A DNA stretch of 64,000 bases from an uncultured Clostridia bacterium (GTDB lineage Bacteria > Bacillota > Clostridia > Christensenellales > Borkfalkiaceae): the NCBI GenBank assembly GCA_947629675.1, contig CANREM010000005.1:18393-82392 (forward strand), in the 5' to 3' direction. The stretch's first letter is position 1; each line of letters begins with the position of its first letter. Shown here piece after piece: positions 39,992 through 58,275 of the stretch. Under the pieces are notes generated by a model. It was given only the letters and a program-made list of their open reading frames with translations, made no database searches and was not told the DNA's origin. The translations under genes and the position numbers were made by a program.

Positions 39992-40067
39992 GCTACTGTG
40001 GCTCAGTCGGTAGAGCGATTGATTCGTAATCAATAGGTCGCCGGTTCAAGTCCGGCCAGTAGCTCCA
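39992..40067 (+). tRNA. tRNA-Thr (anticodon CGT); integration target
   Basis: Cloverleaf: GCTACTG acceptor, GGCTCAGTCGGTAGAGC D-arm, ATTGA-TTCGTAA-TCAAT anticodon arm, GCCGG-TTCAAGT-CCGGC T-arm, encoded CCA. Confidence 0.95.
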
Positions 40068-40070
40068 AAA
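40023..40070 (+). repeat. attL core (3' 45 nt of tRNA-Thr plus 3 nt)
   Basis: ttcgtaatcaataggtcgccggttcaagtccggccagtagctccaaaa is identical to 58228-58275. Confidence 0.9.
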
Positions 40071-40122
40071 GAAATCGGGCAAAATAGGCGAATAGTAGCC
40101 GGTTTTGCCCGATTTCTTCTTT
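40071..40122 (+). terminator. Rho-independent terminator after tRNA-Thr (supplied by the element arm)
   Basis: gaaatcgggcaaaa/ttttgcccgatttc is a 14-bp stem followed by ttcttt. Confidence 0.7.
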
Positions 40123-41106: not shown

Positions 41107-42216
41107 TCATGGCGACCTCCTTCGGCCTATGCCTGGATAGCAATCGCAGGCCTTTCCCGTGCCGATCATGAAGCCGGTGTCGTGGCACTTCTGGCAGCTG
41201 AACACGGGTTTGAGATCTTCCTTCGAGATGCCGAGCTTCCGCATGCGGCGAGAGATCTGGACGGCGAGAGATTTCTTCTTCGCTTCGAGCTTTGCAACTT
41301 CTTTGAGATCTCCTTTCACTTCGGCGCGTGCGATCTCGGGATCGAGTTTCGCATGCTGCGCGTGAAGGTCGTGGTACTTTGGATCTCCCTCGAGGAGTTC
41401 TTGGAATTGTTCTGCCCGGGCGTTTGCTTTGGCCTGCCGTGCCGCATAGAAGCGTTCTCTCTCGGCGCGTTGGTCGGCGGCGTTCGAGGGATCCTTCCCG
41501 GTTTTCCGAGATGCTTCATGCACGGCCTTCTCTTCTTCCTTCTTGTAGGCTTTGTAAGCAGCGCGGAGGAGCTTCTCATTGACTTTATACGAGCTTCTCC
41601 AATGCCCGTTGACGCCTTTGCAGTCCTCGGGCCTGAAGATGAGATCCATTGAGAAGAGGAGCTTGATCGCCTTCTGAACGCTTGCCGGGCAAAGATCGAC
41701 GAGCTTTGCGATTCCTCGGACGGAGCCGTGGAACGCTCCGTCGCCTTTTTCGTTGGTGCAATGCGTGATAAAGAGGCTCAGGACCTTCTTCGCTGCGTCG
41801 GTGAGGTATTCCTCGCGCTCAGAGCCTTTTATGTGGAACTTTGTTGTAAGTATGAAGAAATACATGCGGATATAGCCTCTCTCAAAGACGCGATCATTCG
41901 TTTTATAGGCGGCCCGGGCGGGATCGCTCTTATCCTGCTCGAAGAGGCCCTCGGCGCGGAGATCTTTCATAGCCGATGCTATTGTTGATTTTACATAGCC
42001 GAGTTTATTTCCAAAGCCTTGAAAAGAAAGGTGGACGGCCGCATCTGGATCGTCCTTTGTCCTTGAGAACGAATAAATATAGCCTCTTACCGCTACGAGA
42101 GACGTTCTTACGTGCTTTCCGTTTACTTTTTTCCTGAAAAAAGCATACGGAATGCGGATACATCCGCTCTGAGCGCGTTCTACGGGGTCTTTTTGTTCTA
42201 TGTACTGCTGTTGCAT
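41107..42216 (-). CDS. Replication-initiation/helicase-loader-like protein (wHTH domains plus a DnaI/DnaC-N-like zinc module)
   Basis: 369 aa. The C-terminal coiled segment ends in CQKCHDTGFMIGTGKACDCY, which resembles the N-terminal Zn module of clostridial DnaC/DnaI-like loaders. GCGGAGGA RBS. Confidence 0.5.
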   Translation of the reverse strand: MQQQYIEQKDPVERAQSGCIRIPYAFFRKKVNGKHVRTSLVAVRGYIYSFSRTKDDPDAAVHLSFQGFGNKLGYVKSTIASAMKDLRAEGLFEQDKSDPARAAYKTNDRVFERGYIRMYFFILTTKFHIKGSEREEYLTDAAKKVLSLFITHCTNEKGDGAFHGSVRGIAKLVDLCPASVQKAIKLLFSMDLIFRPEDCKGVNGHWRSSYKVNEKLLRAAYKAYKKEEEKAVHEASRKTGKDPSNAADQRAERERFYAARQAKANARAEQFQELLEGDPKYHDLHAQHAKLDPEIARAEVKGDLKEVAKLEAKKKSLAVQISRRMRKLGISKEDLKPVFSCQKCHDTGFMIGTGKACDCYPGIGRRRSP

Positions 42217-42236
42217 GAGGATCCTCCGCTTGGATC

Positions 42237-42458
42237 TTATTTGACGAGATAGAGTTTCCCGTGTTCTACGGCCACGAGGCCGAGGGGGATGAGCTTTTTA
42301 TCGAGGTTATAGCGCACGGTGGATCTTGTGCATCCGACGGTGCGTGCGATGAGGTTATAATCGAGGCGACGCCTTTTGCCGCCCTTGAGGCTTTCTTTCA
42401 GAAAGCGATAGATCTTGCTGGCGGTGCTTTCGATGAGGAGCGCGTTCTGATCTGTCAT
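42237..42458 (-). CDS. Small winged-helix DNA-binding protein
   Basis: 73 aa containing LIARTVGCTRSTVRYNL (HTH-like). ATGA overlap with the upstream ATPase stop. Confidence 0.5.
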   Translation of the reverse strand: MTDQNALLIESTASKIYRFLKESLKGGKRRRLDYNLIARTVGCTRSTVRYNLDKKLIPLGLVAVEHGKLYLVK

Positions 42459-44710
42459 TTTTGCCCTCCTTTCTCCGAGTTCTCTTCAGGAGGCTCGGAT
42501 TCGAGATAGTATTTATCAAGTTTTTGGAAGTGGTAGGATCCTTCCTGCCTGTGTTCGCTCATCTTGGCATGCGTGGTGGCAAAGCAAGGGACGTCATCTA
42601 TGCCGGTGGGCGATTTGAGGGTCTTCTCGTTGTAGCTGTCCTGCCATGCGTCGGTCTGGAATACGTTCGCATAGTTCTTTCGGTTGGACATGAACAGGCT
42701 GAACTGCTCGAGCGCGACGTCTTTGGTGCCCGCCTGCACGGTCCCTTTGACCTTGTAGCCTCCAAAGACGGAGACGGCGCGCTGATAGTGATCGTAGATC
42801 TTTTTCCGGACGACGTTCTGAAGGAACCATAGAAGCAGCGTCTGATCGCCGCGGTTGAATGCTGCCTCATCGAAGAGCTTCCCGAGGAGCTTCTCGGAGA
42901 GTAGATAGATCGCTTCTTCGATGGCAAAGAAGGGCAAGAGGATCTTTTGCTTTCCCTTCTCGCGGAGGACGATGATGTCGCCGAGTTCGACGAGATCCGC
43001 ATTGAGGCTCGAGGCGCGCTGTTCGTCGGCGATGATGCGTAAAAAGGCATTATAGGCGACGGTCGCGCTGTGTCCTCTCATCTTGATGTCGAGGTTGAAG
43101 AGATCGTTGAGGATGTTTGCTTCCTCATCCTCGACCTTCTTCCCGGCGCGGTCGAACTGATTCCCGCGCTCCTTGCCGAATTCCGTGAACGCTGCGACGC
43201 CGTATTCGAAGGCGTCCTTGTATTTGTCTTGAGGATCCACCTTCTTGCCCGGGCGGAACATGTCGAAGTGAACGATGTGTGCCATGCGCGATCTGTCGAT
43301 CGGAGAGGGGTCTTTTCGGTAAAAATCATCGTCCCATTGGATCTCGTTTCCGCGGTCCTGCAGATCGTCATCCATTCTGATCGGGAAATTCGAGAGAAGC
43401 ATCGAGGGCGTGAGCTGCAGCCTGTAGAGCTGCGAGAAGTCATGGATAGCGTCGTAGATTGTTTCTTTTCCGAGGCCGCGGTCGTAGACTGTGGGCCAGC
43501 GTTTTGTGTCATATCCGAAAAGGATGTTGTCGAATCGGATCCCGTATTTTCGGGAAAGCATTTTGCGGTGTATTCTGACTTGATATGGATCGTTTTGATA
43601 GGCTTTGTGGGCCTCACAGATCTTGTCGGCCCATTTTCGCACGTGTGCGAGATTATAGAGTTCATGCTTCTTTGCGCCGCGCTGTATGACCTTTTCGAGC
43701 GTGATCCAAGGGAAATTCGGGAACTTGAGCTGTATCTCGCGCATCGCCTTTTTGCACATGTTTCTGAAGAGTTTATCGTAGGTGATCGCGGTAGACGCGA
43801 GAAAGGTCGTTTTTCCGGAGCGCATCGGGGCTGTGACAATGAAGAAGATCGGCCGCTCCTCGAGGAATTTTCGGAACGATTTCTCCTGCTTCTCGAGGCG
43901 GCTGAAACCGATGCTCTTTCGCCAGCGTGTGAAGATCCAGAGGCCAAAGGGGATCCAGATCCAAATGGGGAGGAATCTCACGGCGACGGTGACGTCGTAG
44001 ACAAGCTTGATGAGCTGTACGCCGATAGACGTGACGTCGGCATGAGACGCATAGTGGAAGAGCCAAGCGACGAATTCAAGCCCCACCGTAAAGCCGTTGA
44101 AAAAGAATACGGCGATAAGGATGAGGGCCTTTTTATAGGCATGTTCTCCAAAGAAGCGGAAAAAGCGTTTGACAAACCTTTTTGCCGGCATGTAGGCTCT
44201 GTCGTAGAACCTCATGAAGCATCTGAGCGGTTTCGATTGTCCGGCATAGCGGTTATTTTGCGCCTTCACTTGCGAGCTGATCGCCAGCCCCACCGGGACG
44301 GCGACAAGTCCTCCGAGCAGGATGATCGCTACGCTCGAATAGAGCAGGATCCTGCCGATGAGCCTCAGATACGCCAGCATGTTGGCGGGCGATATGAGTG
44401 TGAGGCCGATATTTTTGAATACGTTGACGAATTCGCTCCATACCTGCGGGATCTCCGTCGTCATGGCGGAAGAAAATTGCGACGACGTGGAAGTTGTCGC
44501 GCCTGCGATGGATCCTATTTCATGGAATACATCGCGGAGGGATTCGAAGAAACGTATGTAGATCTGAGGGACCCGGACGGATCCAAGGACGATGATTTCT
44601 GCGAGGATCGCGAGTGCCATGGCGTGGAATACCTTCGGCCGCCACGCCGGATAAAATGGCATTGCATGCGCTGCATGTTGTTCTTTTTTTCGTGACTTGA
44701 GATGCTTCAT
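42455..44710 (-). CDS. Polytopic-membrane P-loop NTPase (candidate assembly/DNA-translocation ATPase, distantly Zot/pI-like)
   Basis: ~290-aa N-terminal region with about six TM helices, then Walker A FFIVTAPMRSGKTT, a candidate Walker B VAAFTEFGKERG, and a following RIIADEQRASSLNADLVEL segment. The ATG at 44710 overlaps the stop of the 30-aa ORF. Confidence 0.6.
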   Translation of the reverse strand: MKHLKSRKKEQHAAHAMPFYPAWRPKVFHAMALAILAEIIVLGSVRVPQIYIRFFESLRDVFHEIGSIAGATTSTSSQFSSAMTTEIPQVWSEFVNVFKNIGLTLISPANMLAYLRLIGRILLYSSVAIILLGGLVAVPVGLAISSQVKAQNNRYAGQSKPLRCFMRFYDRAYMPAKRFVKRFFRFFGEHAYKKALILIAVFFFNGFTVGLEFVAWLFHYASHADVTSIGVQLIKLVYDVTVAVRFLPIWIWIPFGLWIFTRWRKSIGFSRLEKQEKSFRKFLEERPIFFIVTAPMRSGKTTFLASTAITYDKLFRNMCKKAMREIQLKFPNFPWITLEKVIQRGAKKHELYNLAHVRKWADKICEAHKAYQNDPYQVRIHRKMLSRKYGIRFDNILFGYDTKRWPTVYDRGLGKETIYDAIHDFSQLYRLQLTPSMLLSNFPIRMDDDLQDRGNEIQWDDDFYRKDPSPIDRSRMAHIVHFDMFRPGKKVDPQDKYKDAFEYGVAAFTEFGKERGNQFDRAGKKVEDEEANILNDLFNLDIKMRGHSATVAYNAFLRIIADEQRASSLNADLVELGDIIVLREKGKQKILLPFFAIEEAIYLLSEKLLGKLFDEAAFNRGDQTLLLWFLQNVVRKKIYDHYQRAVSVFGGYKVKGTVQAGTKDVALEQFSLFMSNRKNYANVFQTDAWQDSYNEKTLKSPTGIDDVPCFATTHAKMSEHRQEGSYHFQKLDKYYLESEPPEENSEKGGQK

Positions 44711-44799
44711 GCGCCCACTGCTCCTTGGCACGAAAAGACGATATATCCGATGAGGATGATGAGGCCGAGCGTGCCGAGGATCTTGAGCGCGAGCTTCAT
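44707..44799 (-). CDS. 30-aa hydrophobic peptide (not in the ORF track)
   Basis: MKLALKILGTLGLIILIGYIVFSCQGAVGA. AAAGGAGAAAAA RBS, and its stop overlaps the ATPase ATG (ATGA). Confidence 0.6.
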   Translation of the reverse strand: MKLALKILGTLGLIILIGYIVFSCQGAVGA

Positions 44800-44809
44800 T
44801 TTTTCTCCT

Positions 44810-45127
44810 TTAGGCAAAAAATTCTTCGCAGAACTCTTTGAACTGCTTTATCGTTCGACAAGCTTTCTGACAGACGGCTTGTCCGTTATATGCGGTGAAC
44901 TGATAGTAGTTTTCGCTCGAGCGGATGAGGGCGATGAAGGCTTCGAGCTTCGAGTTTTGCTTTGGGATCCTTACGATCTGTGTCAGTGCCTTTGGATCCG
45001 TTCGGCTGTAGGATGGCTCGAAGATCTTCACGCCGTCATCTTTCATGTTCATTTTGATGAATATCACGCCGCCCTTCACGGTGCGCCTCTCGAAGCCCGG
45101 CGGCGTATAATAGCTTTGGATCTTCAT
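44810..45127 (-). CDS. Hypothetical soluble 105-aa protein
   Basis: ORF abutting the upstream stop (tga-g-atg). No TM and no recognised motif. Confidence 0.5.
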   Translation of the reverse strand: MKIQSYYTPPGFERRTVKGGVIFIKMNMKDDGVKIFEPSYSRTDPKALTQIVRIPKQNSKLEAFIALIRSSENYYQFTAYNGQAVCQKACRTIKQFKEFCEEFFA

Positions 45128-45128
45128 C

Positions 45129-45704
45129 TCAAAAATAGATACGGTCTTGGGAAAGTTCCAGCCCGGTGAGCTGATGGGGCGTCACGCGGATCTGAATGCT
45201 GTATTTGATCGCTTCGTTGTAAGACGTTACGGTTAGGATATAGAGAGGGACCTCCGGATCGGGAGGATCGCTCAAAAGGTTTATCTCTTCGTCCGGATAG
45301 AGCATGGAAAGGATCTCCTCGATCGTGTTATCCGCGCTGAATAATGTCTTGAGCGTAAAGCTGCTTTCAGATTTTTGGATCTCAAAGAGAGATTCGACGC
45401 CCTTCTCACCGCTCCAGCGTTTGATCGCCGTCCCGACGGTATATTCGAGATCTACTTCCGGATTCGGAGTGATCGCGACGGTATAGTCGCGTTTCTTCGT
45501 CTCGAATGGATACTTTACCTTGAATGTCTCTTCTGTATCTTCTTCGACTTTGACTTCTGCCTCGGACCCCATGATCGATTCACCGTCATAGACGATGTAG
45601 AATGTCTTAAAATCTTCGTTGAAGTGATCGGTGAAGTGCCAGATGAAGAGGACGGCTGCCGTTACGACGAGCAGCGTTGCAAGCACTGCAAAAAATTTCT
45701 TCAT
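45129..45704 (-). CDS. N-terminally anchored membrane protein, unknown function
   Basis: 191 aa. MKKFFAVLATLLVVTAAVLFIW is the TM. AGGAG RBS. Confidence 0.6.
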   Translation of the reverse strand: MKKFFAVLATLLVVTAAVLFIWHFTDHFNEDFKTFYIVYDGESIMGSEAEVKVEEDTEETFKVKYPFETKKRDYTVAITPNPEVDLEYTVGTAIKRWSGEKGVESLFEIQKSESSFTLKTLFSADNTIEEILSMLYPDEEINLLSDPPDPEVPLYILTVTSYNEAIKYSIQIRVTPHQLTGLELSQDRIYF

Positions 45705-45722
45705 ATCGGTCTCCTGTGGCTT

Positions 45723-46673
45723 TTATGCAGGTTTGTCGGTGTCCCATACCGCTCTGAGCGTCCCGCTTCCATAGATGGTGATGCTTGTCCCGGCGGCGTA
45801 AGTCTTTTCCCCTGATGCCCAATGAAGGAAAGTGTGACCGCTCCATTGCGGCGCGTTCGGGAGAGTGATTTTTTGGCCTTCCTTTGCGGACATGGGTGCC
45901 ACTTTTTCGCTCCCAGTATAGCTTCCGAGGTCAAAGGTCACGGTGTAAGTGGCAAGAGGGATCGGATCGAGCGATTTGATCTTCTGTATCTGGATCCCGT
46001 TTTTGTATGTCGTGTCCGGGGTCTTGAAGATCTTCAGCGAGATCCTGTAGATGCCGTCATATTTCTCCTTGAGGGAGATCTCTTTTTCTGCCGCTTCGAA
46101 GGCGGTGTTGCTTCCGAGAAGCTCGGTATAACCGAGAGAGCCTTCTTCGGATCTTCCTTTTTCGATGTGGAATTTGTCGCCGGCATAGAGTTCGAGGTCA
46201 ACTTGATAGACACTATAGTCGGAGGTCGAAGCTGCAAGATCCTGCTCGAGCAGAAAGACGCCCGGCGCATTCTGGATCTCCTCGAGCGTGCCTTTTCCTT
46301 CTCCTACGATGTACCATAGATTCGGATCGTCGTAGACGGTGCGGCCGTAAAGTGTAAGGTCCTTTTTGAGCTTTGTCGTGAACTTATAAGGCGTCGTATA
46401 GCCTTTGTCTGTGTACCACCCGTCGACGGCGGTATCCTCGGTTAGCTCTGGTTCGAAGGGATCCTCGATCCTCTCCCCATAGAGGTAAGCCTTTTCCTCT
46501 GTCTTTGTCTTTTTGCCGTCGAGGACCCATGTTACACTCACGCGCTCCGGAAGCGATGTGTTGCGCTTCACGAGCCTTACGATCAGGGCGGTGATGAGCG
46601 AGAGTAGGATGACGGCGATAAGTACGATCAAAACGATGCGGATCGCTTTACTTTTCTTCTCACTCTTGGACAT
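45723..46673 (-). CDS. N-anchored surface protein with a CBM-like beta domain and one Listeria-Bacteroides (InlB B-type) repeat
   Basis: TM near the N-terminus. WYIVGEGKGTL...LELYAGDKFHI parallels the C-terminal domain of the 568-aa protein. The C-terminus is TYTVTFDLGSY...GHTFLHW. Start at 46673 with a GGAGG RBS. Confidence 0.65.
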   Translation of the reverse strand: MSKSEKKSKAIRIVLIVLIAVILLSLITALIVRLVKRNTSLPERVSVTWVLDGKKTKTEEKAYLYGERIEDPFEPELTEDTAVDGWYTDKGYTTPYKFTTKLKKDLTLYGRTVYDDPNLWYIVGEGKGTLEEIQNAPGVFLLEQDLAASTSDYSVYQVDLELYAGDKFHIEKGRSEEGSLGYTELLGSNTAFEAAEKEISLKEKYDGIYRISLKIFKTPDTTYKNGIQIQKIKSLDPIPLATYTVTFDLGSYTGSEKVAPMSAKEGQKITLPNAPQWSGHTFLHWASGEKTYAAGTSITIYGSGTLRAVWDTDKPA

Positions 46674-46887
46674 GGATACCTCCGATGACGTCAACGTTTG
46701 CTTTTTCTGCTATTTCGGCCGTCAGGGCCGCGGCATCTTCAGCTTTCTCTTTCGGCTTGAACTTTGAAAGATCCGTGCCGCCTTTCGTGATGAAGCTGAA
46801 GGCGAGCGCGAGGGCGAGAAGGACGGCGATGACGATCGCCGTGATCCCGACCCAGCGTGGGAAAGTTTTGCTTTTTTTCGCTGCCAT
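46660..46887 (-). CDS. 75-aa single-TM protein
   Basis: MAAKKSKTFPRWVGITAIVIAVLLALALAFSFI... with an acidic tail. AAGAGG RBS. Confidence 0.55.
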   Translation of the reverse strand: MAAKKSKTFPRWVGITAIVIAVLLALALAFSFITKGGTDLSKFKPKEKAEDAAALTAEIAEKANVDVIGGIHVQE

Positions 46888-47027
46888 TTCGTGACCTCTT
46901 TTTTATTTTTCACACCGGGAATGGTGTTCGGCTCTGTCAGCCGAGCGGAGTTTTCCCTCCGCTCGACCTTCGAGATGTCGCTCCCCGGCCGTGATGGGCG
47001 GCCAATGCGGAGTAGGGAGCATATTTT

Positions 47028-47758: not shown

Positions 47759-47781
47759 TTTTGACATCTCCTTGTTATATG

Positions 47782-49740
47782 TTATTTTTTGAGCTTCCCG
47801 GCCGCGAGACGCTTGAAGAGCGCGTCAAAGAGCCTGTATAGGAGGTAAACGCCGACGACGACCGCGATGATGATGAGCAGGACGGCCCACCAAGGGAGGC
47901 CGGCTTTCGGCTGTTGATAAGTGGGGAAGGACGCATCCTGAAAGACGTCGATGGGGCTTTGCGCTACGGGGATCACTGTTTTTTGCATCCCTCTCGTGAA
48001 GGTGAGATCGATCACTCTGAAGTCGAGGTTGACGGTCTCTTGGAAAAAGTAGGCGTTATAATCGTCCCAATAGAGGAAGTGATTGCTTGCGCCCCACCGG
48101 CCGACATGTGCCTCGAGCGCGTCCTGTGCGATGTAGTCGCTTACTTGATAGCGGAAAAGATAGACGCTGCAGCCTTCGGGGTTCTCGAGGGTGACCTTCG
48201 TCGCATCGTCATAGAACTTTTTGAGACCTTCCACATCCCCTTGATCGACGTAGAGCGTCTCTGAGATGGCTTCTGTTTCGCCTTTCAGATCCGTCTCTTC
48301 CACTTTGTGGATCGCGTTCACCGCGGGGAACGCGCTTTCTGAGATCTTCTTCTTATCTTTTTTCGGGAACTTCAGGCCGATAAAATCTTTGTATGCTTCT
48401 TCGAGCGTGACGTTCGCAAGGTTCCATGATTTATCGATGCCCCATGTGACTTCGGTGTACTCATCGTCTACTTGTGAGAACAGCACGCTGCTATATTTGT
48501 CCTGAACGAGCTTGCCGCCGAGCCTTGCCGTTCTCGCGAGAAGTTCGGTTTGGATCTCCTCCGCGGTGACGGTGTAATTGTGAGCGGTCTCCTCGCCGGC
48601 TCCGGCATAAAAGAGGAGCTGCAGATCGTCGATCTCGACGCCATAGCTGTTTTTATGGACGCCACCCGCGTTCCAGACATCAGTGTCGATGCTTGAATGT
48701 GCGTTCTCGCCGAGATAGCTATAGCCGCATCCGACGCCTCCGCCGAATGCCATGCTCTCCATATTTGAGTTGAAATTTCCGAGTATGACATATTTGAGTT
48801 CATCAACATGTTCGGACATCTTGACGCCGAGATAGGGCTTGATCGCCTCATAGATCTCATAGTTTCCCGTCACGAGAGCCGGTGCGGTCACGGCGTTCAG
48901 CCAGCGGGCATGAACGGCACTCATATCGCCGTATATGCGCATATATTGGTTGGGCACAGCAAAGTAGACGCTGTGCAGGCTGTCCTTCATGAAGTCGTTT
49001 TTGCCGTTATAGCCTTTCGGCCTGAACTGCGTGGGCGTCACGTTTAAGGTGATGACTTCTTTCTCCTCGGTATAGCTTTGGAGAGTACTCTTTTCGGCGT
49101 CGTCGTAGCCGGCCGCATAACCGGAAAAGTAGAAGCTCTTTCCCACCGGAACGGTTGTCGCATTCAGATTCCCGCGCATGAGAAGGTTGAGATCGCCGAC
49201 ATAGTACTCTCGTTCCGCTTTTCTATAGACGGCCTCGATGACGTCATCGCGCTCCTTTTTTGTGAAGCGGATCTTATACTTGAGAAGAAGGCCCTCATAT
49301 CCCGCCTGCGTCGTTTCGCTCAAGAATTCGAGCTGGTAGATCTCGAAAGCTTTCTCCTTGTTGGATCCGGCGCGCATGCTGATCGTGTTGCGGATGTCAT
49401 CACGCTGGATGGCGAGGGCCTGCGGATTGTAGACGTAGATATAGAGGCCGTAGTCGTCTTGCTCGTTTGAATATCTGCTATGGCCGAATTCTACGAGCGT
49501 GAGAAGGGAGAGCTGTCCGTCTTGGTCGTAGGGATAGTCGTCGAGCGAAAATGGTACGCCGCCGATCGTAGCCCCCTTGAGGTCGTCCACGATTTCCGTC
49601 TCGTCATACATCGAAGCGACGGAGCCTGTAGCCGCATATGCCGTGTATTGAAGCCCTGTAAGGGCGGAAATCGCCAAAATCAGCGTAACAAATAGCAATG
49701 AAAGGCTTATTTTGATTATTTTCGAAATACGCTCGGTCAT
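47782..49740 (-). CDS. Type I membrane protein (signal peptide, ~590-aa ectodomain, C-terminal TM anchor); candidate receptor-binding/spike or pIII-like protein
   Basis: N-terminus ISLSLLFVTLILAISALTGLQYTAYA-A is signal-like. The C-terminus is LPWWAVLLIIIAVVVGVYLLY followed by a basic tail. Start at ATG 49740 with an AGAGG RBS. Confidence 0.65.
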   Translation of the reverse strand: MTERISKIIKISLSLLFVTLILAISALTGLQYTAYAATGSVASMYDETEIVDDLKGATIGGVPFSLDDYPYDQDGQLSLLTLVEFGHSRYSNEQDDYGLYIYVYNPQALAIQRDDIRNTISMRAGSNKEKAFEIYQLEFLSETTQAGYEGLLLKYKIRFTKKERDDVIEAVYRKAEREYYVGDLNLLMRGNLNATTVPVGKSFYFSGYAAGYDDAEKSTLQSYTEEKEVITLNVTPTQFRPKGYNGKNDFMKDSLHSVYFAVPNQYMRIYGDMSAVHARWLNAVTAPALVTGNYEIYEAIKPYLGVKMSEHVDELKYVILGNFNSNMESMAFGGGVGCGYSYLGENAHSSIDTDVWNAGGVHKNSYGVEIDDLQLLFYAGAGEETAHNYTVTAEEIQTELLARTARLGGKLVQDKYSSVLFSQVDDEYTEVTWGIDKSWNLANVTLEEAYKDFIGLKFPKKDKKKISESAFPAVNAIHKVEETDLKGETEAISETLYVDQGDVEGLKKFYDDATKVTLENPEGCSVYLFRYQVSDYIAQDALEAHVGRWGASNHFLYWDDYNAYFFQETVNLDFRVIDLTFTRGMQKTVIPVAQSPIDVFQDASFPTYQQPKAGLPWWAVLLIIIAVVVGVYLLYRLFDALFKRLAAGKLKK

Positions 49741-49764
49741 GTGTTTACCTCTGCAGGCCTTCAA

Positions 49765-50940
49765 TTAAAAGGCTTGTGAATCTGTGGAAATTGAGAAATC
49801 TGTTGCGGCGATCTCAAGTCCTGTAGTCAAAAAGTCGACATTGCTATTTGTTGCGGTTACGAGTTGAACGACATTCCCTTTGTAGACATAGTGAAGCTTC
49901 ATGACCATCTCTCCATCTTTAGACGTAGATTCAACCGCATTTATAAATAGGCGCAGGAATTTACCTTTGAACGTGTCATCATACTGCTCGGGATATAGTT
50001 TCCCGGTTGATTCCGGAGCATTATTTTTGTCCCAGAGAAAGTATTCTGTCGGCGTTCCTATTTGGAGCGCGATTTGGTTGCCAGTCAGTGGCAAATCGAG
50101 TCCTTCGTGCAGTTTTGAAATGTAATACCCGAGCTGAAACTGATCTTTCGAATATTGTCCTTCAAGCTGTGCCTGTAATGTCTTCTGCAAGTTGACGTCC
50201 ATCCTTATTGAATAGCCGTTGAGGTAATACTCTCCCCGGACTGTGCCGACGCCGTAGGTCGTCTGTATAGAAAAGTTTAATTGCTTCTTGAATGTGATCT
50301 CAATGTTTTCGCGCGCGTCACCTGTCGATTTGACGTGCCTGATATTTATCGTGGAAGGGCGTGCGATATAATCTAATTTGCACGTCTTTGCGAGCTTCGG
50401 GTTCGATTCCGGCGTTGCAGTCAGGACGATTTGCTCGCCGAATGCCTCGTTGCATGTGACGACGACCTGCTTTTCCGACTCTTGGAGGGAGATGTATGTT
50501 TCCACGTTCTTGCCTGTCGCCCACTCGGAAGAGGGATTCGCAAATGAAAGGCTCCATGAAATCCTTGGATTTGTTACGAATTCCGGGGTTATCGTCGCCG
50601 TGATCGTCACCGCCGATTCAATGGATGCGGTGTCGAGGCCATAGTCGCCGAAGTCCTCACGCGCGATGGGAGTGATCCGCAAAGCCATCTTTCTCACAGG
50701 CTCCGCCTCGTCCTCCGCTTCATCCTCCTCTTCAGGCGTAACGACCAAATTGCCCATGTCCTCCTCGGTCTGCTCGTTCTTTGAGAACCAATTCGAGGGC
50801 TTTGCTTTGTCCTTTGCAAAGAGCTGCAGCGATCCGAGGACAAGTGCGGCCGCCATGAGGACGATGACGATCCATACGATCGTCCACTTTATCGTGTCGG
50901 CGCGTTTATGTTTTTGGAATGAATCTTGTCTTTTTTTCAT
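49765..50940 (-). CDS. N-anchored membrane protein, paralog A
   Basis: 391 aa. It shares LQLFAK(D/G)KAKPSNW, SEWA(T/S)GK(N/E)V and AFGEQ blocks with the product of 53047-54219. Confidence 0.65.
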   Translation of the reverse strand: MKKRQDSFQKHKRADTIKWTIVWIVIVLMAAALVLGSLQLFAKDKAKPSNWFSKNEQTEEDMGNLVVTPEEEDEAEDEAEPVRKMALRITPIAREDFGDYGLDTASIESAVTITATITPEFVTNPRISWSLSFANPSSEWATGKNVETYISLQESEKQVVVTCNEAFGEQIVLTATPESNPKLAKTCKLDYIARPSTINIRHVKSTGDARENIEITFKKQLNFSIQTTYGVGTVRGEYYLNGYSIRMDVNLQKTLQAQLEGQYSKDQFQLGYYISKLHEGLDLPLTGNQIALQIGTPTEYFLWDKNNAPESTGKLYPEQYDDTFKGKFLRLFINAVESTSKDGEMVMKLHYVYKGNVVQLVTATNSNVDFLTTGLEIAATDFSISTDSQAF

Positions 50941-50988
50941 CTTTCACCTTACCTTATAAGATTTTTTTGGTTTCGATTTGATGCCGCG

Positions 50989-51153
50989 TCAGGGGCGACC
51001 TCCCCATTCTTCGAAGGGAGCGATGCCTGTCTCTTTTTCCAAGCTGTCGAGGCGTGAGAGGATCTTCGAGATCTTGCGCTGCGTGATGAAGCTATGCACG
51101 GCGAGGAGGAGGGCCGCGACGCCGGCTACGATGAACAGGATGAGTTCCGTCAT
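50989..51153 (-). CDS. 54-aa single-TM protein (not in the ORF track)
   Basis: MTELILFIVAGVAALLLAVHSFITQRKISKILSRLDSLEKETGIAPFEEWGGRP. ATGA overlap with the upstream small ORF. Confidence 0.55.
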   Translation of the reverse strand: MTELILFIVAGVAALLLAVHSFITQRKISKILSRLDSLEKETGIAPFEEWGGRP

Positions 51154-51326
51154 GTGTCTGCCTCCCAGCTCTCTGACTTGTGCTGCTCAAAGTACCGCAG
51201 GGCCGCTCGGACCGTGTAAGGTTCCCGGCGGCGTGCAATGCTCATCGCGATAGCGCATGCAGCCACTACGATCGCGGCTGCAAAGAGAATGAATGCTACG
51301 ATCGTTAGGATCAACGCTGTATTCAT
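51150..51326 (-). CDS. 58-aa single-TM protein (not in the ORF track)
   Basis: MNTALILTIVAFILFAAAIVVAACAIAMSIARRREPYTVRAALRYFEQHKSESWEADT. Its ATG overlaps the stop of the 568-aa gene (ATGA), and GGAGG lies upstream. Confidence 0.55.
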   Translation of the reverse strand: MNTALILTIVAFILFAAAIVVAACAIAMSIARRREPYTVRAALRYFEQHKSESWEADT

Positions 51327-53029
51327 TCATATACCTCCTTCCTTTTCGCCTGCTCGAGCGTGACATCGCGGAGCTTCAGAAGCTCTGCCGCTGCGATCGC
51401 GCTCGGCCCATCATCGCCCTGATCTCCCGCATACGGGGAGATGGATCTCACCTTGGTAATGTCGAGGTGCGACGTTTCACCACCCAACGTCATGAAGGTG
51501 TAGAGCTTGATCTTATAGACGCCGTCCTGGCCGGACTTCAACACGATGTTGTGGTCGTTGCCGTCATCGTCCTCGAAATAGTCCCAGCCGCTCCAGAGGT
51601 CGTTTCGGCCAAATGCGACCGTCCAATCGGTGTTGTATGTTATCTTGAACTGATCGCCCGCATAGAGCGTCAGCTCTATGGTGAAGAGGTTGTCCGCATC
51701 TTCAGTGTTATCTCTCTTCATGAGGAGCTTGTTATGCGTCCACGCGTTGCTCCTGAGCGTTCCGTTGCCTGCACCCAGCACATACCATGTCCGGTTGTCG
51801 AGTAGGCTGTTTTTCGTCCATTTTGCGGTGTATTTGACGCTGGCCGTAACGGCGATATGTTCGCCCGCCTGCTTATAGACGCTGCCGACCTTCCATCCGT
51901 GGAAGGTATAGCCCGTCCATGTGGGCGGAGTGGGAAGGTCTACGCCCTCGCCCTGCCGCACCGTTATGGGCGCGACCGTTTCCCGGCCCGTGTACTCACC
52001 GAGATCGAAGGTGACCGTGTACTTGATGATCTCCGTCCACTCAGCAGTGGCCGTCACCGTCTCGGTGGGGGTGAACCGCTCGTGAGGTTGCTTGAGATCC
52101 CCGGCGATACGCCAGCCGTCGAAGGTGTGATCTTCCCATTCGGGAGCCTCGGGGAGTTCGAAGTCTGAACCTTGCTGAACCGTGACGGCTGCGACGGTCT
52201 CTTCGCCGTCATAGTCGCCGAGGTCGAAGGTGACCGTGTATTTGACGATCTCTGTCCACTCGGCGGTGGCCGTCACCGTCTCGGTGGGGGTGAACCGCTC
52301 GTGAGGTTGCTTGAGATCCCCGGCGATACGCCAGCCGTCGAAGGTGTGATCTTCCCATTCGGGAGCCTCGGGGAGTTCGAAGTCTGAACCTTGCTGAACC
52401 GTGACGGCTGCGACGGTCTCTTCGCCGTCATAGTCGCCGAGGTCGAAGGTGACCGTGTATTTGACGATCTCTGTCCACTCGGCGGTAGCCGTCACCGTCT
52501 CGGTGGGGGTGAACCGCTCGTGAGGTTGCTTGAGATCTTCGCCGATGCGCCAGCCGTCGAAGGTGTGATCTTTCCATTCTGGGGCCTCCGGGAGTTCGAA
52601 GTCAGAACCTTGCTGAACCGTGACGGCTTCGACGGGTTCCCCGCCGTCATAATCACCGAGGTCGAAGGTGACGGTGAAGTTCACGACCGGAAGGACACCC
52701 TCCCATACGGCTAACGCCGTGACGTCTTTCGTCACGGTGTAGTTATCCCCGGCATCGGCCATGTCGCCGCCGATGCGCCAACATGTGAAGGTGTGATCTT
52801 TCCATTCTGGAGCCTCCGGGAGTTCGATCTCCTCGCCTTCTTTGACTTTGATAGGATCGATGCTTTCATCTCCGTCATACTCGGCGAGGTCGAAGTTCAC
52901 CGTGCATGTCTTGTTTGAGAGCTTTTTGAAGAGGCCCGTGCAGAGGCCTGCGATCAAAAGGGCGACTGCGATGAGGACGATCACCATGATCACCACGCCG
53001 ACCTTGCTCTTGGAATGCGATCTGCTCAT
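51323..53029 (-). CDS. N-anchored surface protein with ~6 Listeria-Bacteroides (InlB B-type) repeats and a C-terminal CBM-like domain
   Basis: Repeats of ..YTVTFDLGDYDG.E.V..V.VQQGSDFELPEAPEW.DHTFDGWRI.... Start at ATG 53029 with an AAGAGGA RBS. Confidence 0.7.
   Translation of the reverse strand: MSRSHSKSKVGVVIMVIVLIAVALLIAGLCTGLFKKLSNKTCTVNFDLAEYDGDESIDPIKVKEGEEIELPEAPEWKDHTFTCWRIGGDMADAGDNYTVTKDVTALAVWEGVLPVVNFTVTFDLGDYDGGEPVEAVTVQQGSDFELPEAPEWKDHTFDGWRIGEDLKQPHERFTPTETVTATAEWTEIVKYTVTFDLGDYDGEETVAAVTVQQGSDFELPEAPEWEDHTFDGWRIAGDLKQPHERFTPTETVTATAEWTEIVKYTVTFDLGDYDGEETVAAVTVQQGSDFELPEAPEWEDHTFDGWRIAGDLKQPHERFTPTETVTATAEWTEIIKYTVTFDLGEYTGRETVAPITVRQGEGVDLPTPPTWTGYTFHGWKVGSVYKQAGEHIAVTASVKYTAKWTKNSLLDNRTWYVLGAGNGTLRSNAWTHNKLLMKRDNTEDADNLFTIELTLYAGDQFKITYNTDWTVAFGRNDLWSGWDYFEDDDGNDHNIVLKSGQDGVYKIKLYTFMTLGGETSHLDITKVRSISPYAGDQGDDGPSAIAAAELLKLRDVTLEQAKRKEVYE
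51900..52860 (-). repeat. 219-bp (73-codon) tandem repeat array; the central copies are near-identical
   Basis: The unit starting cgggagcctcgggg recurs at 52141 and 52360. By eye, 52045-52545 is essentially two perfect copies, with diverged copies on both sides. Confidence 0.8.
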
Positions 53030-53046
53030 TTTTTCCTCTTTGAGAA

Positions 53047-54219
53047 TCAAATAAAATCTATATCACCGGTCCCGATATTTACGCTGCTTGCAAAAGTGCC
53101 GAAAGAACTGTCGTTGAGAAATATGCTTACTTCTTTTTCTTGTTTCTTTCCATTGACTGTTGTCTCGATCTTATATCTCCATGCACCTTGTATCGGGCAA
53201 ATCTGCCTGAAGTTTTGCTTAAAGGCTGCCCAATCTGTGGGGGGTACTGTGAGGATGAAAAGCTTCGTGAAGTCAAAGCCGTTAAGTGTGGCGATTTTAC
53301 CAGATCCTTCATCGGTATGAACATTGTCATAGATCACTGATCCAGTATAGACTGCTCCGCCGCCTTCAAATAGATTGTTACTCATTGCTTTGAAACTAAC
53401 TTTTACATCTGTTACCGTTGCCTCTTTGGTATACGTTTGCGTGAGCGGCGTGGTCACTGTGAACACATAGTTGCCTTTCTTGCTGCCGTCGGGCGTATAA
53501 TAATCCAATAACTCTTGGTATGTCTTTGTATACCCGGGGAAGTTTACGCGTGACTGTTTATCTCTTCCGTTTCCATTCAGCTCCCACGTGAGATTTGCGT
53601 CTGGATATGAGGAATTCGTGTAGACGATCTTTGCCGTCGGATAGGATTCTTCATCATACCGTTGCACATAGTTCACGGTGCGAGGGGCACTCTTCACGGA
53701 GGCATTTGTCTTGATCTGCGCCGTAAGCTGAAGCTGCTCGCCGAATGCTTGCAAGCAGGAGAGTGTCGCCGAGAGGGTATCCTCGCCCACTTGAATTGTT
53801 ACATATTCGGAAACTTCTTTGCCTGACGCCCATTCACTTTGAGGATCCTTCCAAACGAGCTGCCAATCGAGCTTGCCATCTTCCGCAGGTTTGCCGTCGT
53901 CGGTTCCGACTGTCGCCGTGACCTGCATCGCTGTCTCTGCTATGGACATGATGCCGTATTGAGCGTAAAGCTTTCGAGGAATGATGCTCGTGGTGAGTTG
54001 GATCTTGGCATTGTCTTTTTCGGGTGCTTCGATCTCGAGGCCGCCTTCTGCTTCGCCGGTGGGCGTCTGATCGCCCCAGTTCGAGGGTTTCGCCTTGCCC
54101 TTTGCAAAAAGCTGAAGCAAGCCGAGAGTGAGCGCAAAGACCATAAGGAAGAGAATGACGTAAATGGTGATCCGCATTATGCGATTCGCTTTTGCGTCTC
54201 TGTTCGAGCTGTTTTTCAT
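53047..54219 (-). CDS. N-anchored membrane protein, paralog B
   Basis: 390 aa, paralogous to the product of 49765-50940. AGGAG RBS. Confidence 0.65.
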   Translation of the reverse strand: MKNSSNRDAKANRIMRITIYVILFLMVFALTLGLLQLFAKGKAKPSNWGDQTPTGEAEGGLEIEAPEKDNAKIQLTTSIIPRKLYAQYGIMSIAETAMQVTATVGTDDGKPAEDGKLDWQLVWKDPQSEWASGKEVSEYVTIQVGEDTLSATLSCLQAFGEQLQLTAQIKTNASVKSAPRTVNYVQRYDEESYPTAKIVYTNSSYPDANLTWELNGNGRDKQSRVNFPGYTKTYQELLDYYTPDGSKKGNYVFTVTTPLTQTYTKEATVTDVKVSFKAMSNNLFEGGGAVYTGSVIYDNVHTDEGSGKIATLNGFDFTKLFILTVPPTDWAAFKQNFRQICPIQGAWRYKIETTVNGKKQEKEVSIFLNDSSFGTFASSVNIGTGDIDFI

Positions 54220-54369
54220 GTATAATCTCCTGCGTTTAATGACCGCCGTCTATTTTTTCTTTGAATTCTCCCGCTCCCTTTGGGGCCGCCTGCGCGGCCC
54301 CTCCGGGAAATAAGGAGGAATTTATGGATGCCGAGGTGGAACTTCTCGGCGCGGAGGCTATGATACATG

Positions 54370-54678: not shown

Positions 54679-54715
54679 GTTGAATTCTCCCTTTCCTTTA
54701 TCATTCTCTGAGGTG

Positions 54716-54895: not shown

Positions 54896-55070
54896 TTCTC
54901 TCCTCCTCTTTGAAGCGATATGTGGATCTCAGCGACAGTGAATTTTTGCTCTATTTGCAACTGCAAACAGTATATCATAAACTGTTTGCAACTGTCAATA
55001 GATTTTGTAAATTTATTTTTTGTGTGGGTAAAAATTATTGCTAAAATTTAATTAAGTAGAGGTGTTTACA
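54896..55070. promoter_or_regulatory. Divergent promoter/operator region (genetic switch)
   Basis: TTTGCAACTG occurs at 54954-54963 and 54985-54994. The inverted repeat GCAAACAGT/ACTGTTTGC lies at 54963-54971 and 54981-54989. AT-rich. Confidence 0.6.
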
Positions 55071-55481
55071 ATGGTTAACGAGAAATTGAACGCTTTGATT
55101 AAATTAGCGCAAGGAGATCGAAGTCAAAATCAATTCGCCTTGCACTGTGGCGTGAACTCTTCGACTATAACGCAAGTTCTTCATGGTAGACATAATCCCT
55201 CACCCGAGTTTTTGAAAAAAATCGCGGATAGGGCATATAATGGTGTCACTTTTGAGATGCTTCTTGAAGCATCATTTTCCGCTTTTTCAGACGAACCATT
55301 TTCCCTAAGGCCAAACGGAGTTGTAGAGTCACCCGATCTCTCCTTAGATGAGCGTGAACTCATAGATGCTTTTCGTTTGATGCGTCCCGCGCAACAAGCC
55401 CTTCTATTAAAGACCGCTCAAATGTGGAGTACAACTTCATTTGGATTCGAAGAGCAACCATATCGTAAAAATGATAGCTAA
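55071..55481 (+). CDS. XRE-family repressor (CI-like position)
   Basis: N-terminal HTH QNQFALHCGVNSSTITQVLHG. AGAGG RBS upstream of ATG 55071. Confidence 0.75.
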   Translation: MVNEKLNALIKLAQGDRSQNQFALHCGVNSSTITQVLHGRHNPSPEFLKKIADRAYNGVTFEMLLEASFSAFSDEPFSLRPNGVVESPDLSLDERELIDAFRLMRPAQQALLLKTAQMWSTTSFGFEEQPYRKNDS

Positions 55482-55495
55482 TTGGAGGGGAGCAG

Positions 55496-56763: not shown

Positions 56764-57039
56764 ATGGCAAAAGAAGAAATATTTAGAGAAAAAGTGATTG
56801 AGCTTTACATGAAGGCGGCCGAACTAATTGCATTGTTGGATCCGCCAACTGAGTTTCAGAGGCTCATGCTCTACCAAGATGGTGCCGATGAGCCGACGGT
56901 GAGCGGAGAAATTGGGACGCATGAAGTACAAATGCTAAAAAAAAGATATTTGAACGAACAAAGATTTCTGGGCGTTTTGGATCCACTTCTACAAAAGTCA
57001 TGGAGAACTCAGTGGAAGAGAAAATATTCCCGGGCATGA
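56764..57039 (+). CDS. Hypothetical 91-aa protein upstream of the integrase (excisionase-position gene)
   Basis: AAGGAGA RBS. Its stop overlaps the integrase ATG (ATGA). No recognised Xis motif. Confidence 0.45.
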   Translation: MAKEEIFREKVIELYMKAAELIALLDPPTEFQRLMLYQDGADEPTVSGEIGTHEVQMLKKRYLNEQRFLGVLDPLLQKSWRTQWKRKYSRA

Positions 57040-58106
57040 AAGAAGAGGCGGATAATGAGGCAAAATCGGTATTTTTGGAATTTTCAAATAAGGAGTTATC
57101 AAAAATGCCGAAATTTTTTAGATCGGAATTCAGACTGCAGGGAGGCGAGGTCGCACACGCAAGAAAAAAGAAAAATGGAACATTTGAGATCAGATACCGA
57201 AGAAATGGGATCAATCTCTCAGTAAGTGCGAAATCTTTGGAGCTTGCCAAAGAGCGTTTTATTAAAAAGCTTTGTGAGCTGCAAGATGAAGGAGGGCTCG
57301 GCGACGTCACCTTTAAGGACTATGCCGAGCAATGGCTGGAGATCGTTAAGAAACCGCAAATAAAGGATGATACGCTTCACAACTACCGACGGATGCTTTG
57401 CCTTTACGTCTACGACCGCATGGGGGAGAAGCTTCTGAAGGAGATCCGGCCACTTGACGTTCAGAAGCTCTTGAATGAGATCCTGGAGTGTGGGCTTGAA
57501 CGCACGGCGGCCAACGTCTATGTCATCATCAAAGCGATCTTCGAATTTGCTGTGGCCGATGACATCATCGCAAAGTCCCCGATGCGGCTCATCAAGAAGC
57601 CGAGGCATGAGATGAAGCACGGCGTCGCGCTGTCTGTCGAAGAGGAGCGCGCCTTCGTGCGGGCATGTGCCGAGGGAAGTTCACCGTGCAGGTATGCGTA
57701 TTTGCTGTTGCTCTTTACGGGGATTCGCCGCTCAGAGCTTGCCTCGGCGGAGATCTCGCCGGATTGGGTCACGGTGGTAACATCCAAAACGCGCAAGGGT
57801 GCGGGCGTGAAAAAGCGAAAGATCCCCGTGTCACCGATGTTGCGCCCCTTCATGCCATACATGACGAAAGAGAACCTCAGCGTAAGCCCCGATCTCTTGA
57901 CGAGGGGGATCGCTGCGTTTCTTCCCGGCCACCACCTTCACGATCTGCGGCATACGTTCATAACGCGTTGTCAGGAGTGTGGGATCTCGCGTGAACTCGC
58001 GTCTCTTTGGGCAGGACATCGTCCCGATAATACCGTTACGAGCAATGTCTATACGCATTTAGGTGAGAGATTTCAGCTTGAGGAGATCAAGAAATTAAAA
58101 TATTGA
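57036..58106 (+). CDS. int: Tyrosine-type site-specific integrase
   Basis: N-terminal SAM-like domain, and a C-terminal catalytic region with LLFTGIRRSE...HDLRHTF...WAGH....VTSNVYTH (the R-H-R-H-Y pattern). Confidence 0.9.
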   Translation: MKEEADNEAKSVFLEFSNKELSKMPKFFRSEFRLQGGEVAHARKKKNGTFEIRYRRNGINLSVSAKSLELAKERFIKKLCELQDEGGLGDVTFKDYAEQWLEIVKKPQIKDDTLHNYRRMLCLYVYDRMGEKLLKEIRPLDVQKLLNEILECGLERTAANVYVIIKAIFEFAVADDIIAKSPMRLIKKPRHEMKHGVALSVEEERAFVRACAEGSSPCRYAYLLLLFTGIRRSELASAEISPDWVTVVTSKTRKGAGVKKRKIPVSPMLRPFMPYMTKENLSVSPDLLTRGIAAFLPGHHLHDLRHTFITRCQECGISRELASLWAGHRPDNTVTSNVYTHLGERFQLEEIKKLKY

Positions 58107-58227: not shown

Positions 58228-58275
58228 TTCGTAATCAATAGGTCGCCGGTTCAAGTCCGGCCAGTAGCTCCAAAA
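58228..58275 (+). repeat. attR core (duplicate of the tRNA-Thr 3' part)
   Basis: Identical to 40023-40070. It lacks the tRNA 5' half, so it is not a functional tRNA. Confidence 0.9.

Follow-up and report, generated by a model that had tools for sequence, protein, structure and literature searches.

The question raised by this locus is what a 751-amino-acid membrane protein with a P-loop does for the small mobile element that encodes it. The gene lies on the minus strand of a 64,000-nucleotide stretch (the window) of contig CANREM010000005.1 from an uncultured Clostridia bacterium, within an element integrated at a tRNA-Thr gene. An earlier note, made from the sequence alone, had likened the protein to the Zot/pI assembly ATPases and had named it, as the only NTPase of its operon, the best candidate for a motor of DNA export, assembly or packaging. 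Our analysis favours, with a probability of about 0.5, the reading that the ATPase is an assembly/egress motor and that the elements encoding it are a new, non-tailed and temperate group of virus-like elements. This reading draws on gene context: the element is bounded by tRNA-Thr repeats and has, besides an integrase, both a CI-like regulator and a replication initiator; the proteins scanned gave no relaxase, VirB4, coupling-protein or tailed-phage match; and no PLSDB plasmid carries the gene. The sole significant fold match of the ATPase, a viral protein in BFVD, also fits.

The ATPase gene and its product

The open reading frame (ORF) of the ATPase spans 42455-44731 when opened at a GTG codon. 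The ATG at 44710 is the start common to the database copies and gives the protein of 751 amino acids (P0001) described here. All strings quoted in the earlier note are found in it, namely FFIVTAPMRSGKTT at residues 289-302, VAAFTEFGKERG at residues 505-516 and MRGHSATV...RIIADEQRASSLNADLVEL from residue 544. At the upstream junction, ...GGC GCATGAAG, the TGA of a gene for a 30-amino-acid single-transmembrane (TM) micropeptide overlaps the ATG of the ATPase gene, and an AAGGAG ribosome-binding site precedes the micropeptide gene. At the downstream junction, ...CAA AAATGACA, the TGA of the ATPase gene overlaps the ATG of a 73-amino-acid helix-turn-helix (HTH) gene. Translational coupling to a small hydrophobic peptide upstream and a winged HTH gene downstream, as proposed earlier, is borne out by the ATGA overlap read at each junction.

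Family-averaged hydropathy revealed four TM segments (approximately residues 28-47, 115-146, 195-222 and 236-261) together with amphipathic helices, and this replaces the count of about six hydrophobic helices made earlier. All four TM helices precede the ATPase domain and none follows it, in agreement with the earlier description of a polytopic-membrane P-loop ATPase with its membrane domain first. The charges of the loops around the TM segments (+5, -1.4, +5.2, -0.6 and +3.2) place, by the positive-inside rule, both the N-terminus and the ATPase domain in the cytoplasm. The membrane domain has conserved polar residues (R53, D60, N205, E212, K235 and D239), of which R53, N205, K235 and D239 are at least 90% conserved in 147 full-length relatives (25-81% identity). 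Across the same relatives K300, Y400, E510, N517 and R565 are invariant, and the residues T301, R316, F330, P331, F333, N441, R445, D447, G454, D483, R486, G504, K513, E514, R515, N532, N535, D536, K543, H547, D562 and Q564 are also conserved in at least 90%.

An AlphaFold2 (AF2) run with the 147 sequences gave a model with a pLDDT of 92.5 and a pTM of 0.88; it replaced an earlier run with 14 sequences, which had a pLDDT of 69 and gave meaningless Foldseek hits. In the model, nine helices within residues 24-284 precede a strand (289-293), which leads through the P-loop into a 30-residue helix (300-329). A helical/hairpin insertion (about residues 330-437), a short strand (438-440) and a second insertion come next, then strand 504-508 running into T509-E510, a helix terminating at H547, and strand 557-563 terminating in D-E-Q-R. 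The remainder comprises a long strand (578-590), a pair of long helices and, at the C-terminus, a beta-hairpin region. The core of the model is a first beta-strand, P-loop and helix, with the parallel strands later in the chain.

Two features of the additional strand catalytic glutamate (ASCE) class of P-loop proteins were found. The sequence FFIVTAPMRSGKTT has the Walker A pattern G/AxxxxGK[ST] after a beta-strand, and a hydrophobic strand ends in T509-E510 with the invariant E510 in the position of the terminal catalytic Glu. Because E510 is invariant and E563 is not, the strand hhhhTE510 is probably the Walker-B/catalytic strand; D562, Q564 and R565 would then take the sensor-1/arginine position, as judged from conservation and strand order, and residues 539-565 are the candidate segment for it. 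By its architecture and its conserved catalytic residues, the protein appears to be a real P-loop ATPase of the ASCE type, which presumably hydrolyses ATP.

A constant module in variable elements

To compare the surroundings of the ATPase gene, crude gene calls of 86 loci were clustered. The constant block consists of N-anchored proteins (clusters c6, c4 and c5), the protein c1, small basic proteins, the micropeptide and the ATPase, in this order and followed by replication and integration genes; these modules vary, on either side of the block. The most constant partner of the ATPase is c1, which was found in 65 of 87 loci, always upstream of the ATPase gene and on the same strand. In 60 of the 86 loci, the gene of a peptide of 26-47 amino acids overlaps the start of the ATPase gene or terminates at it; the peptide consensus is MKTFKRILKVLLGIVVLLVIGYFIYTGKQV, with a GY that is at least 90% conserved, and it was called as a gene in one locus (L091). 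The 30-amino-acid micropeptide is, on this sequence evidence, a genuine conserved partner of the ATPase.

Two relatives are closed circles. One, of 8710 bp (L003), encodes a tyrosine integrase, an HNH protein, an HTH_3 regulator, two small proteins, an N-anchored protein, c1, the micropeptide, the ATPase and a Rep_1 protein; the other, of 13013 bp (L060), has an IS30-like integrase and a replication protein (Rep) with Rep_OBD and SF3-helicase domains. Across the loci the replication module is a microvirus/G2P-like HUH Rep in 39, Rep_OBD plus S3H in 17, an HTH_36 initiator in five, and Rep_1 in the smaller circle, and the integration module is an IS30-like DDE enzyme in 43, an rve enzyme in nine and a tyrosine recombinase in seven. 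The outcome that the earlier note had said would count against its proposal, homologues mostly outside mobile elements, was not what we found: the relatives sit in small integrative or circular elements.

The conserved membrane proteins have no Pfam or PHROG match. Among the scanned cluster representatives and the window proteins, no relaxase, VirB4, T4 coupling protein or tailed-phage structural protein was found. Pleolipoviruses and the Dehalococcoides IME1 elements show this pattern of a constant module, made up of membrane proteins and one ATPase, to which exchangeable modules for replication and integration are joined, and we therefore favour an assembly/egress ATPase.

Several further observations were made on these loci. 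One contig (CAJUSA010000004.1; L014 and L015) carries two ATPase copies about 14 kb apart, and another contig carries two elements head-to-tail (L043), so tandem integration seems common. Very basic proteins of 95-160 amino acids (c8, c14, c15, c18 and c21; e.g. 1844-2200 in L057 and 9265-9738 in L041) flank the ATPase in most relatives and may be DNA-binding or DNA-condensing; a 110-amino-acid one in the larger circle has a net charge of +18, and one of the clusters has a weak MazF/PemK-like match. In the window, a 105-amino-acid protein at 44810-45127 is a differently composed occupant of this position. Nine loci have a secreted GDSL/SGNH hydrolase inside the membrane-protein module (c17; 6907-7653 in L051), which could be a surface-glycan or cell-wall esterase for entry or exit. 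In many relatives, a region on the opposite strand downstream of the ATPase (c9, c12, c24 and c27) encodes Zn-ribbon/nuclease-like, SprT-like, DnaJ-domain and DUF932 proteins, which are typical accessory genes of mobile elements.

Family size, distribution and fold

A word-indexed search with the ATPase returned 14 relatives only. An exhaustive profile search found 1201 representatives of 50%-identity clusters at E <=1e-3, 616 of them at E <=1e-30, and nearly all are 700-790 amino acids long and aligned end to end. Species genomes of the Genome Taxonomy Database (GTDB) contain 347 ATPase loci, nearly all in metagenome-assembled genomes of gut Clostridia; the hosts include Christensenellaceae and Christensenella, 'Acidiphilium sp. 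CAG:727', Ca. Pelethenecus, Scatosoma and Coproplasma, and one locus (L020, on NZ_CALPCH010000018.1) is in the cultured Pumilibacter intestinalis. The gene was found in none of 72,556 PLSDB plasmids and, in INPHARED, in one unannotated contig.

Searches of Pfam, PHROGs, NCBIfam, PADLOC and the PDB sequences with the window protein, family members and the family consensus gave no match beyond approximately 20-25 P-loop residues, and PADLOC gave no defence-system match. In the literature we found nothing on the ATPase family, on plectrovirus- or plasmavirus-like elements in Christensenellales, or on the BFVD accession discussed below. A match to a T4 coupling protein, an ABC-type ATPase or a housekeeping ATPase, any of which would have spoken against the earlier proposal, was looked for and no confident one was found. 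FtsK_SpoIIIE, TraG/VirD4 and TrwB had no Pfam match in 66 members or the consensus, and none of the three was among the 50 PDB chains listed by Foldseek. The best HerA chain in that list was 8yhx_A (E 1.3, TM-score 0.13-0.17). ABC_tran matched none of the 66 members (the LSGGQ motif was not searched for), and one ABC exporter chain was listed at E 4.5.

Foldseek comparison of the 147-sequence model with PDB gave no chain at E <=1e-3, the best E being 0.13; the 50 chains listed are weak ASCE matches, with many classical AAA chains, Rho, RecA and HerA. Comparison with BFVD gave one significant match, the only significant structural match of the ATPase, to an unnamed viral protein of 269 amino acids (A0A894JLK1; E 4e-5, probability 1.0, TM-score 0.56 on the target).

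Roughly half of the 50 best PDB hits are chains of classical AAA proteins (proteasome Rpt, katanin, FIGNL1, spastin, Cdc48, Pex1/6, ATAD1, NSF and FtsHi), and the sensor strand is followed by a family motif, TDEQRPESLGADARE, that in our reading is similar to the AAA second region of homology (SRH). The protein might then be a membrane-anchored AAA-like translocase or remodeller of proteins (cf. FtsH, Msp1 and Bcs1) that inserts, extracts or assembles the membrane proteins of the element or excludes competitors, with no DNA being moved, and it is true that all co-conserved partners of the ATPase are membrane proteins. However, those AAA hits all have E >0.2 and low TM-scores, and PDB is rich in AAA cryo-electron microscopy chains, so the enrichment may reflect the composition of the database. 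The Pfam family PF00004 matched one of the 66 members, at E 0.024, and the SRH-like RPxxLxADxR is only partly conserved, with the second Arg of the motif missing in the window protein. The case for an AAA-like protein machine thus consists of sub-threshold Foldseek hits and an SRH-like motif, and we consider it very unlikely.

Relationship to Zot/pI

The earlier note saw in the segments beyond the P-loop a resemblance to the Walker B and following His-to-Gln segment of Zot/pI. The resemblance in motif order is real: Walker A, an hhhhxE strand, a helix that terminates at His and a strand that terminates at Gln parallel LLVLDEC...FLHARKLGWDIIFLVQD of M13 gI. Kinship is another matter. Pfam PF05707 (Zot), against which the earlier note had suggested checking the soluble domain, matched neither the window protein (E <=10), nor the 66 members (E <=1), nor the consensus with or without its insertions (E <=10). 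We also compared the family profile by hhalign with a pI profile of 36 homologues of M13 gene I, all carrying PF05707. The probability was 10.3%, over 54 columns around Walker A only, which is below the 15.9% obtained for the family against an unrelated SF3-helicase domain as control; Zot against the SF3-helicase domain gave 42.5%. The Zot signal therefore does not exceed generic P-loop background. Among the 50 Foldseek hits listed for each of PDB and BFVD none bore the name Zot or pI, many of the BFVD rows being unnamed and the query multi-domain. Since ASCE proteins in general have this order of acidic strand, His-helix and Gln-strand, the data do not support placing the protein in the Zot family.

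One could still postulate an extremely diverged and rearranged true member of Zot/pI, in which case the elements would be Gram-positive inoviruses and the 30-amino-acid peptide their coat protein. Besides the motif order, the small genomes, the HUH Reps of G2P/microvirus type, the pIII-like protein with signal peptide and C-terminal anchor, and the tiny hydrophobic peptide are all consistent with this. The profile and fold searches above argue otherwise, as do the reversed domain order with four TM helices and the non-HUH initiator of some elements, including that of the window, which is a poor fit to an obligate single-stranded DNA rolling-circle phage. We regard such a distant kinship as very improbable.

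Comparison of the ATPase hidden Markov model (HMM) and 16 HMMs of neighbour clusters with the proteins of M13, L2, HRPV-1 and SpV1 gave noise only. Single-sequence hhalign against M13 gI, HRPV-1 VP8 and L2 ORF3 was uninformative, with a template Neff of 1. A link to plectroviruses, suggested by the Pfam name REP_ORF2-G2P and by the IS30-like integrase (Spiroplasma SpV1), was dropped: ORF1 of SpV1-R8A2B (715 amino acids) is a membrane protein with signal peptide and C-terminal anchor and not an ATPase, no SpV1 protein matches the ATPase family HMM, and the Rep is closest to microvirus VP4-type Reps. ORF2 of SpV1-R8A2B (L087, 7492..232) has GKLGTGKT, which is nearly identical to the Walker A of M13 pI, GKLGSGKT.

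The element in the window

The features of the element are listed in Table 1. The exact 25-nt copy of the tRNA-Thr 3' end, for which 0 matches are expected by chance, delimits an element of 18.2 kb (approximately 40068-58272), and a further copy of the repeat, differing at one position, lies at 61227-61251. The element is identified as mobile and site-specifically integrated by its direct repeats of the tRNA end, by the adjacent integrase and by the two circular relatives. In a search for an empty integration site, the contigs that share the identical flanking gene either contained the element or stopped at the tRNA. The EF-G cluster of the host places it close to Candidatus Gallimonas within the Clostridia.

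Table 1. Features of the integrated element and of its ATPase gene in the window
Feature	Position	Strand	Evidence or remark
tRNA-Thr(CGT)	39992..40067	+	last 25 nt (40043-40067) are the left attachment repeat
369-aa replication-initiator-like protein, HTH_36 and C-terminal CxxC...CxC motif	41107..42216	-	Pfam HTH_36, PHROG replication-initiation
73-aa HTH gene	42237..42458	-	ATG overlaps ATPase stop; weak Pfam HTH_20 match, E 0.0018
751-aa membrane-embedded P-loop ATPase gene	42455..44710	-	ORF, identical database protein, relatives, AF2 model
Helix to H547, then strand 557-563 to D562-E-Q564-R565, residues 539-565	43016..43096	-	conservation and model
Walker-B-like strand and next motif, residues 504-517 (GVAAFTEFGKERGN)	43160..43201	-	E510 and N517 invariant; model beta-strand 504-508
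Walker A/P-loop, residues 294-301 (APMRSGKT)	43808..43831	-	K300 invariant, T301 at least 90% conserved
Membrane domain with four TM helices (residues 1-265; N-in/C-in)	43916..44710	-	hydropathy, loop charges, AF2 helices
30-aa single-TM micropeptide gene (MKLALKILGTLGLIILIGYIVFSCQGAVGA)	44707..44799	-	stop overlaps ATPase start (ATGA)
Other block genes: 105-aa; 191-aa N-anchored c5; 323-aa N-anchored Flg_new; 75-aa TM; 168-aa	44810..47767	-	
660-aa c1 protein, signal peptide and C-terminal TM anchor	47782..49764	-	TM segments 12-42 and 619-651; no Pfam/PHROG match
Three N-terminally anchored surface proteins	49765..54219	-	two c4 paralogues and Flg_new protein
c4 paralogues, N-anchored	49765..50940 and 53047..54219	-	
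575-aa N-anchored protein, five Flg_new repeats	51323..53050	-	
HTH_3 (Cro/CI-type) regulator	55062..55481	+	divergent from structural block
Tyrosine integrase	57000..58106	+	just inside right end; Pfam Phage_int_M, Phage_int_SAM_3, Phage_integrase
Exact 25-nt copy of tRNA-Thr 3' end	58248..58272	+	right attachment repeat

From approximately 54.2 kb down to 41.1 kb of the window every gene is on the minus strand, and a promoter-like minus-strand site at 54998-54969, found by consensus scan only, faces this block, divergent from the regulator. No second Walker A occurs among the element ORFs in the window, and the ATPase thus stands, as the earlier note had it, as the single NTPase of a long one-strand gene block within a mobile element. 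The 369-amino-acid HTH_36 protein looks like the replication module of the element; in the window and in two relatives (L001 and L008) its cluster (c28) follows the ATPase as the second to seventh called ORF, and it also occurs in L070. No HUH nickase was found among the proteins of the window element by Pfam and PHROG scans.

Five tandem 219-nt coding repeats at 51879-52907, up to 100% identical, form the Flg_new (Listeria-Bacteroides repeat) domains of the 575-amino-acid protein, and a second Flg_new protein is encoded at 45723-46694. These proteins are accessory to the core module and absent from most relatives. Between the regulator and the integrase, a PIN-domain protein (55980-56423, minus strand) adjoins a 144-amino-acid ORF of no assigned family (55496-55930, plus strand), and the pair may be a toxin-antitoxin system or accessory cargo. 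Beyond the right end, a second islet (58273-61251) is bounded by the second and third tRNA-Thr 3'-end repeats. It contains a C5 cytosine methylase gene (59706-60773, minus strand) and a gene whose 365-amino-acid product weakly matches a type II restriction enzyme (58577-59674, plus strand), and looks like a restriction-modification islet inserted in tandem at the tRNA-Thr attachment site.

Proposed function

As an assembly/egress motor the ATPase would work as follows. The N-terminal four-helix domain lies in the cytoplasmic membrane, and the ATPase part, with its two large insertions and helical C-terminal part, faces the cytoplasm. The single-pass peptide from the overlapping upstream gene is most likely in complex with it. 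Together with the exported membrane-anchored proteins, the ATPase forms the invariant module of small temperate elements of approximately 8.7-18 kb, either integrated or circular. Hydrolysis of ATP would power the assembly of element DNA, and its release at or through the membrane, into an extracellular particle made of the membrane proteins of the element; such a particle might be filamentous, pleomorphic/enveloped or membrane-containing, and we commit to no morphology. A motor for DNA export, assembly or packaging, as named in the earlier note, is likewise our best guess at function from context.

Several points weigh against an assembly/egress motor. No particle, virome signal, capsid or coat protein has been identified for the elements, which are known here from their genes. 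The ATPase has no detectable homology to the known morphogenesis or packaging ATPases (pI, L2 ORF3, HRPV-1 VP8 and HerA/FtsK), its Walker-B-like strand has Thr in place of the usual Asp (hhhhTE), and the other conserved proteins resemble none of those of M13, L2, SpV1 and HRPV-1. The gene is present in two of 2.9 million IMG/VR contigs, and this near-absence could mean that the elements are not viruses or merely that pipelines are unable to see them. Finally, many of the hosts are presumably walled monoderms, for which budding is mechanically awkward.

The near-absence from IMG/VR would also fit a conjugation-type translocase, that is, a membrane-anchored motor (TraB-like, or like the FtsK-like TcpA or a coupling protein) that pumps element DNA into a recipient, with the surface proteins as mating adhesins. 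TM helices at the N-terminus and an ATPase at the C-terminus are the layout of coupling proteins and FtsK, the elements are small and integrative, many of them have HUH Reps that could double as nickases, and the window copy has adhesin-like Flg_new repeats. Against conjugation, the corresponding translocase families were missing from the Pfam and PDB results given above, no relaxase, VirB4 or VirB6-like partner was among the scanned proteins, the gene was in no PLSDB plasmid, and the window element itself is without an HUH nickase. To our knowledge, neither a large protein with cleaved signal and C-terminal anchor nor a 30-amino-acid TM peptide is a feature of Gram-positive conjugation modules. 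We consider conjugation unlikely.

Returning to the assembly/egress motor, a bolder version can be put forward, though tentatively and with more doubt than belief. The ATPase and the 30-amino-acid peptide may be hallmark genes of a widespread and hitherto unrecognised lineage of temperate viruses that infect gut Clostridia and lack a capsid, being enveloped, pleomorphic or filamentous. This lineage would be a bacterial counterpart of pleolipoviruses and plasmaviruses, have a new class of membrane-integrated motor unrelated to the pI and FtsK types, and escape current pipelines for virus detection.

Because they lack recognisable hallmark genes, viruses that are non-tailed and chronically released have been sampled very poorly, and inoviruses were seen as pervasive only after pI had served as a marker. 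The ATPase family, with its 1201 clusters and 347 species-level genomes, could serve as such a marker for the element group in Christensenellales-like gut Clostridia. These bacteria have been linked to human and animal health, and we know of almost no phages for them. If the proposal is true, a four-TM domain upstream of a highly derived P-loop core, together with a dedicated micropeptide, would be a new architecture among the membrane-associated motors that move DNA or virion components. The cultured carrier, P. intestinalis CLA-AA-M10, makes the question directly testable.

Comparison with known systems

In inoviruses pI has the role of ATP-driven assembly and release at the membrane, and the same role is presumed for ORF3 of plasmavirus L2 and for VP8 of pleolipoviruses. 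Like pI/Zot, the protein described here is a membrane-anchored P-loop ATPase, the sole NTPase encoded by a small chronic or temperate element, with a similar order of Walker A, acidic strand, His-helix and Gln-strand, and its gene adjoins those of tiny hydrophobic proteins and of an adsorption-type protein with signal peptide and C-terminal anchor. It differs in its reversed domain order (four TM helices before the ATPase domain versus one after it in pI), in a 200-amino-acid insertion between Walker A and the acidic strand, in the form of that strand (hhhhTE versus hhhhDE), and in the absence of sequence, profile or fold-search similarity outside the P-loop.

L2 is the only classified enveloped plasmavirus. 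ORF3 of Acholeplasma phage L2 (L13696; 2278-3216 in our locus L090) has a hydrophobic N-terminal region and then Walker A (ALPGGGKS) and Walker B (LILDEF), followed by an LLRHQG...YLLSQ segment, in Zot-like order and with no Pfam match; it seems to be a membrane-associated ATPase that has gone unannotated, and its function is putative. It shares with the ATPase described here both this layout and its genetic position, after envelope-protein genes and a small ORF with two TM segments and before the integrase gene, in an integrating, budding, capsid-less phage. The L2 protein is, however, only 312 amino acids long with a canonical DE Walker B, and its similarity to the ATPase family is not detectable.

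VP8 of pleolipovirus HRPV-1 (FJ685651) is likewise the last gene of a cluster with a membrane protein, a spike with signal peptide and C-terminal anchor, and small ORFs, but it is soluble, 343 amino acids long and from archaeal hosts, and no similarity to the ATPase family was found. The conserved pleolipovirus cluster (VP3, VP4, ORF6, ORF7 and VP8) is joined to different replication modules and genome types (PMC3384331). The IME1 elements of Dehalococcoides, found in viromes, have been proposed as a new lineage of budding or filamentous viruses (bioRxiv 10.64898/2026.09.15.751708). They too are integrated or episomal elements without tailed-phage hallmarks, with three modules for integration/regulation, membrane proteins plus ATPase, and replication. 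In contrast to the elements here, which are known from genes, IME1 has virome and electron microscopy support, and it is 21-28 kb in size, occurs in Chloroflexota and encodes a recognisably pI-like ATPase.

With the FtsK/SpoIIIE-type translocases (Streptomyces TraB and TcpA) and the T4 coupling proteins, the ATPase shares N-terminal TM helices, a cytoplasmic ATPase domain and an association with small rolling-circle or integrative elements. It differs from them in having no FtsK_SpoIIIE or TraG/VirD4 profile match and no such fold match among the hits listed, and the elements differ from conjugative systems in that no other conjugation genes were found here and the ATPase gene is absent from PLSDB. 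Membrane-associated NTPases as such are already known from morphogenetic modules of small non-tailed elements. What is apparently new here, as far as the sequences tell, is a protein with no detectable homologue among characterised proteins, its distinct architecture and dedicated micropeptide, and the large and apparently undescribed group of elements to which it belongs.

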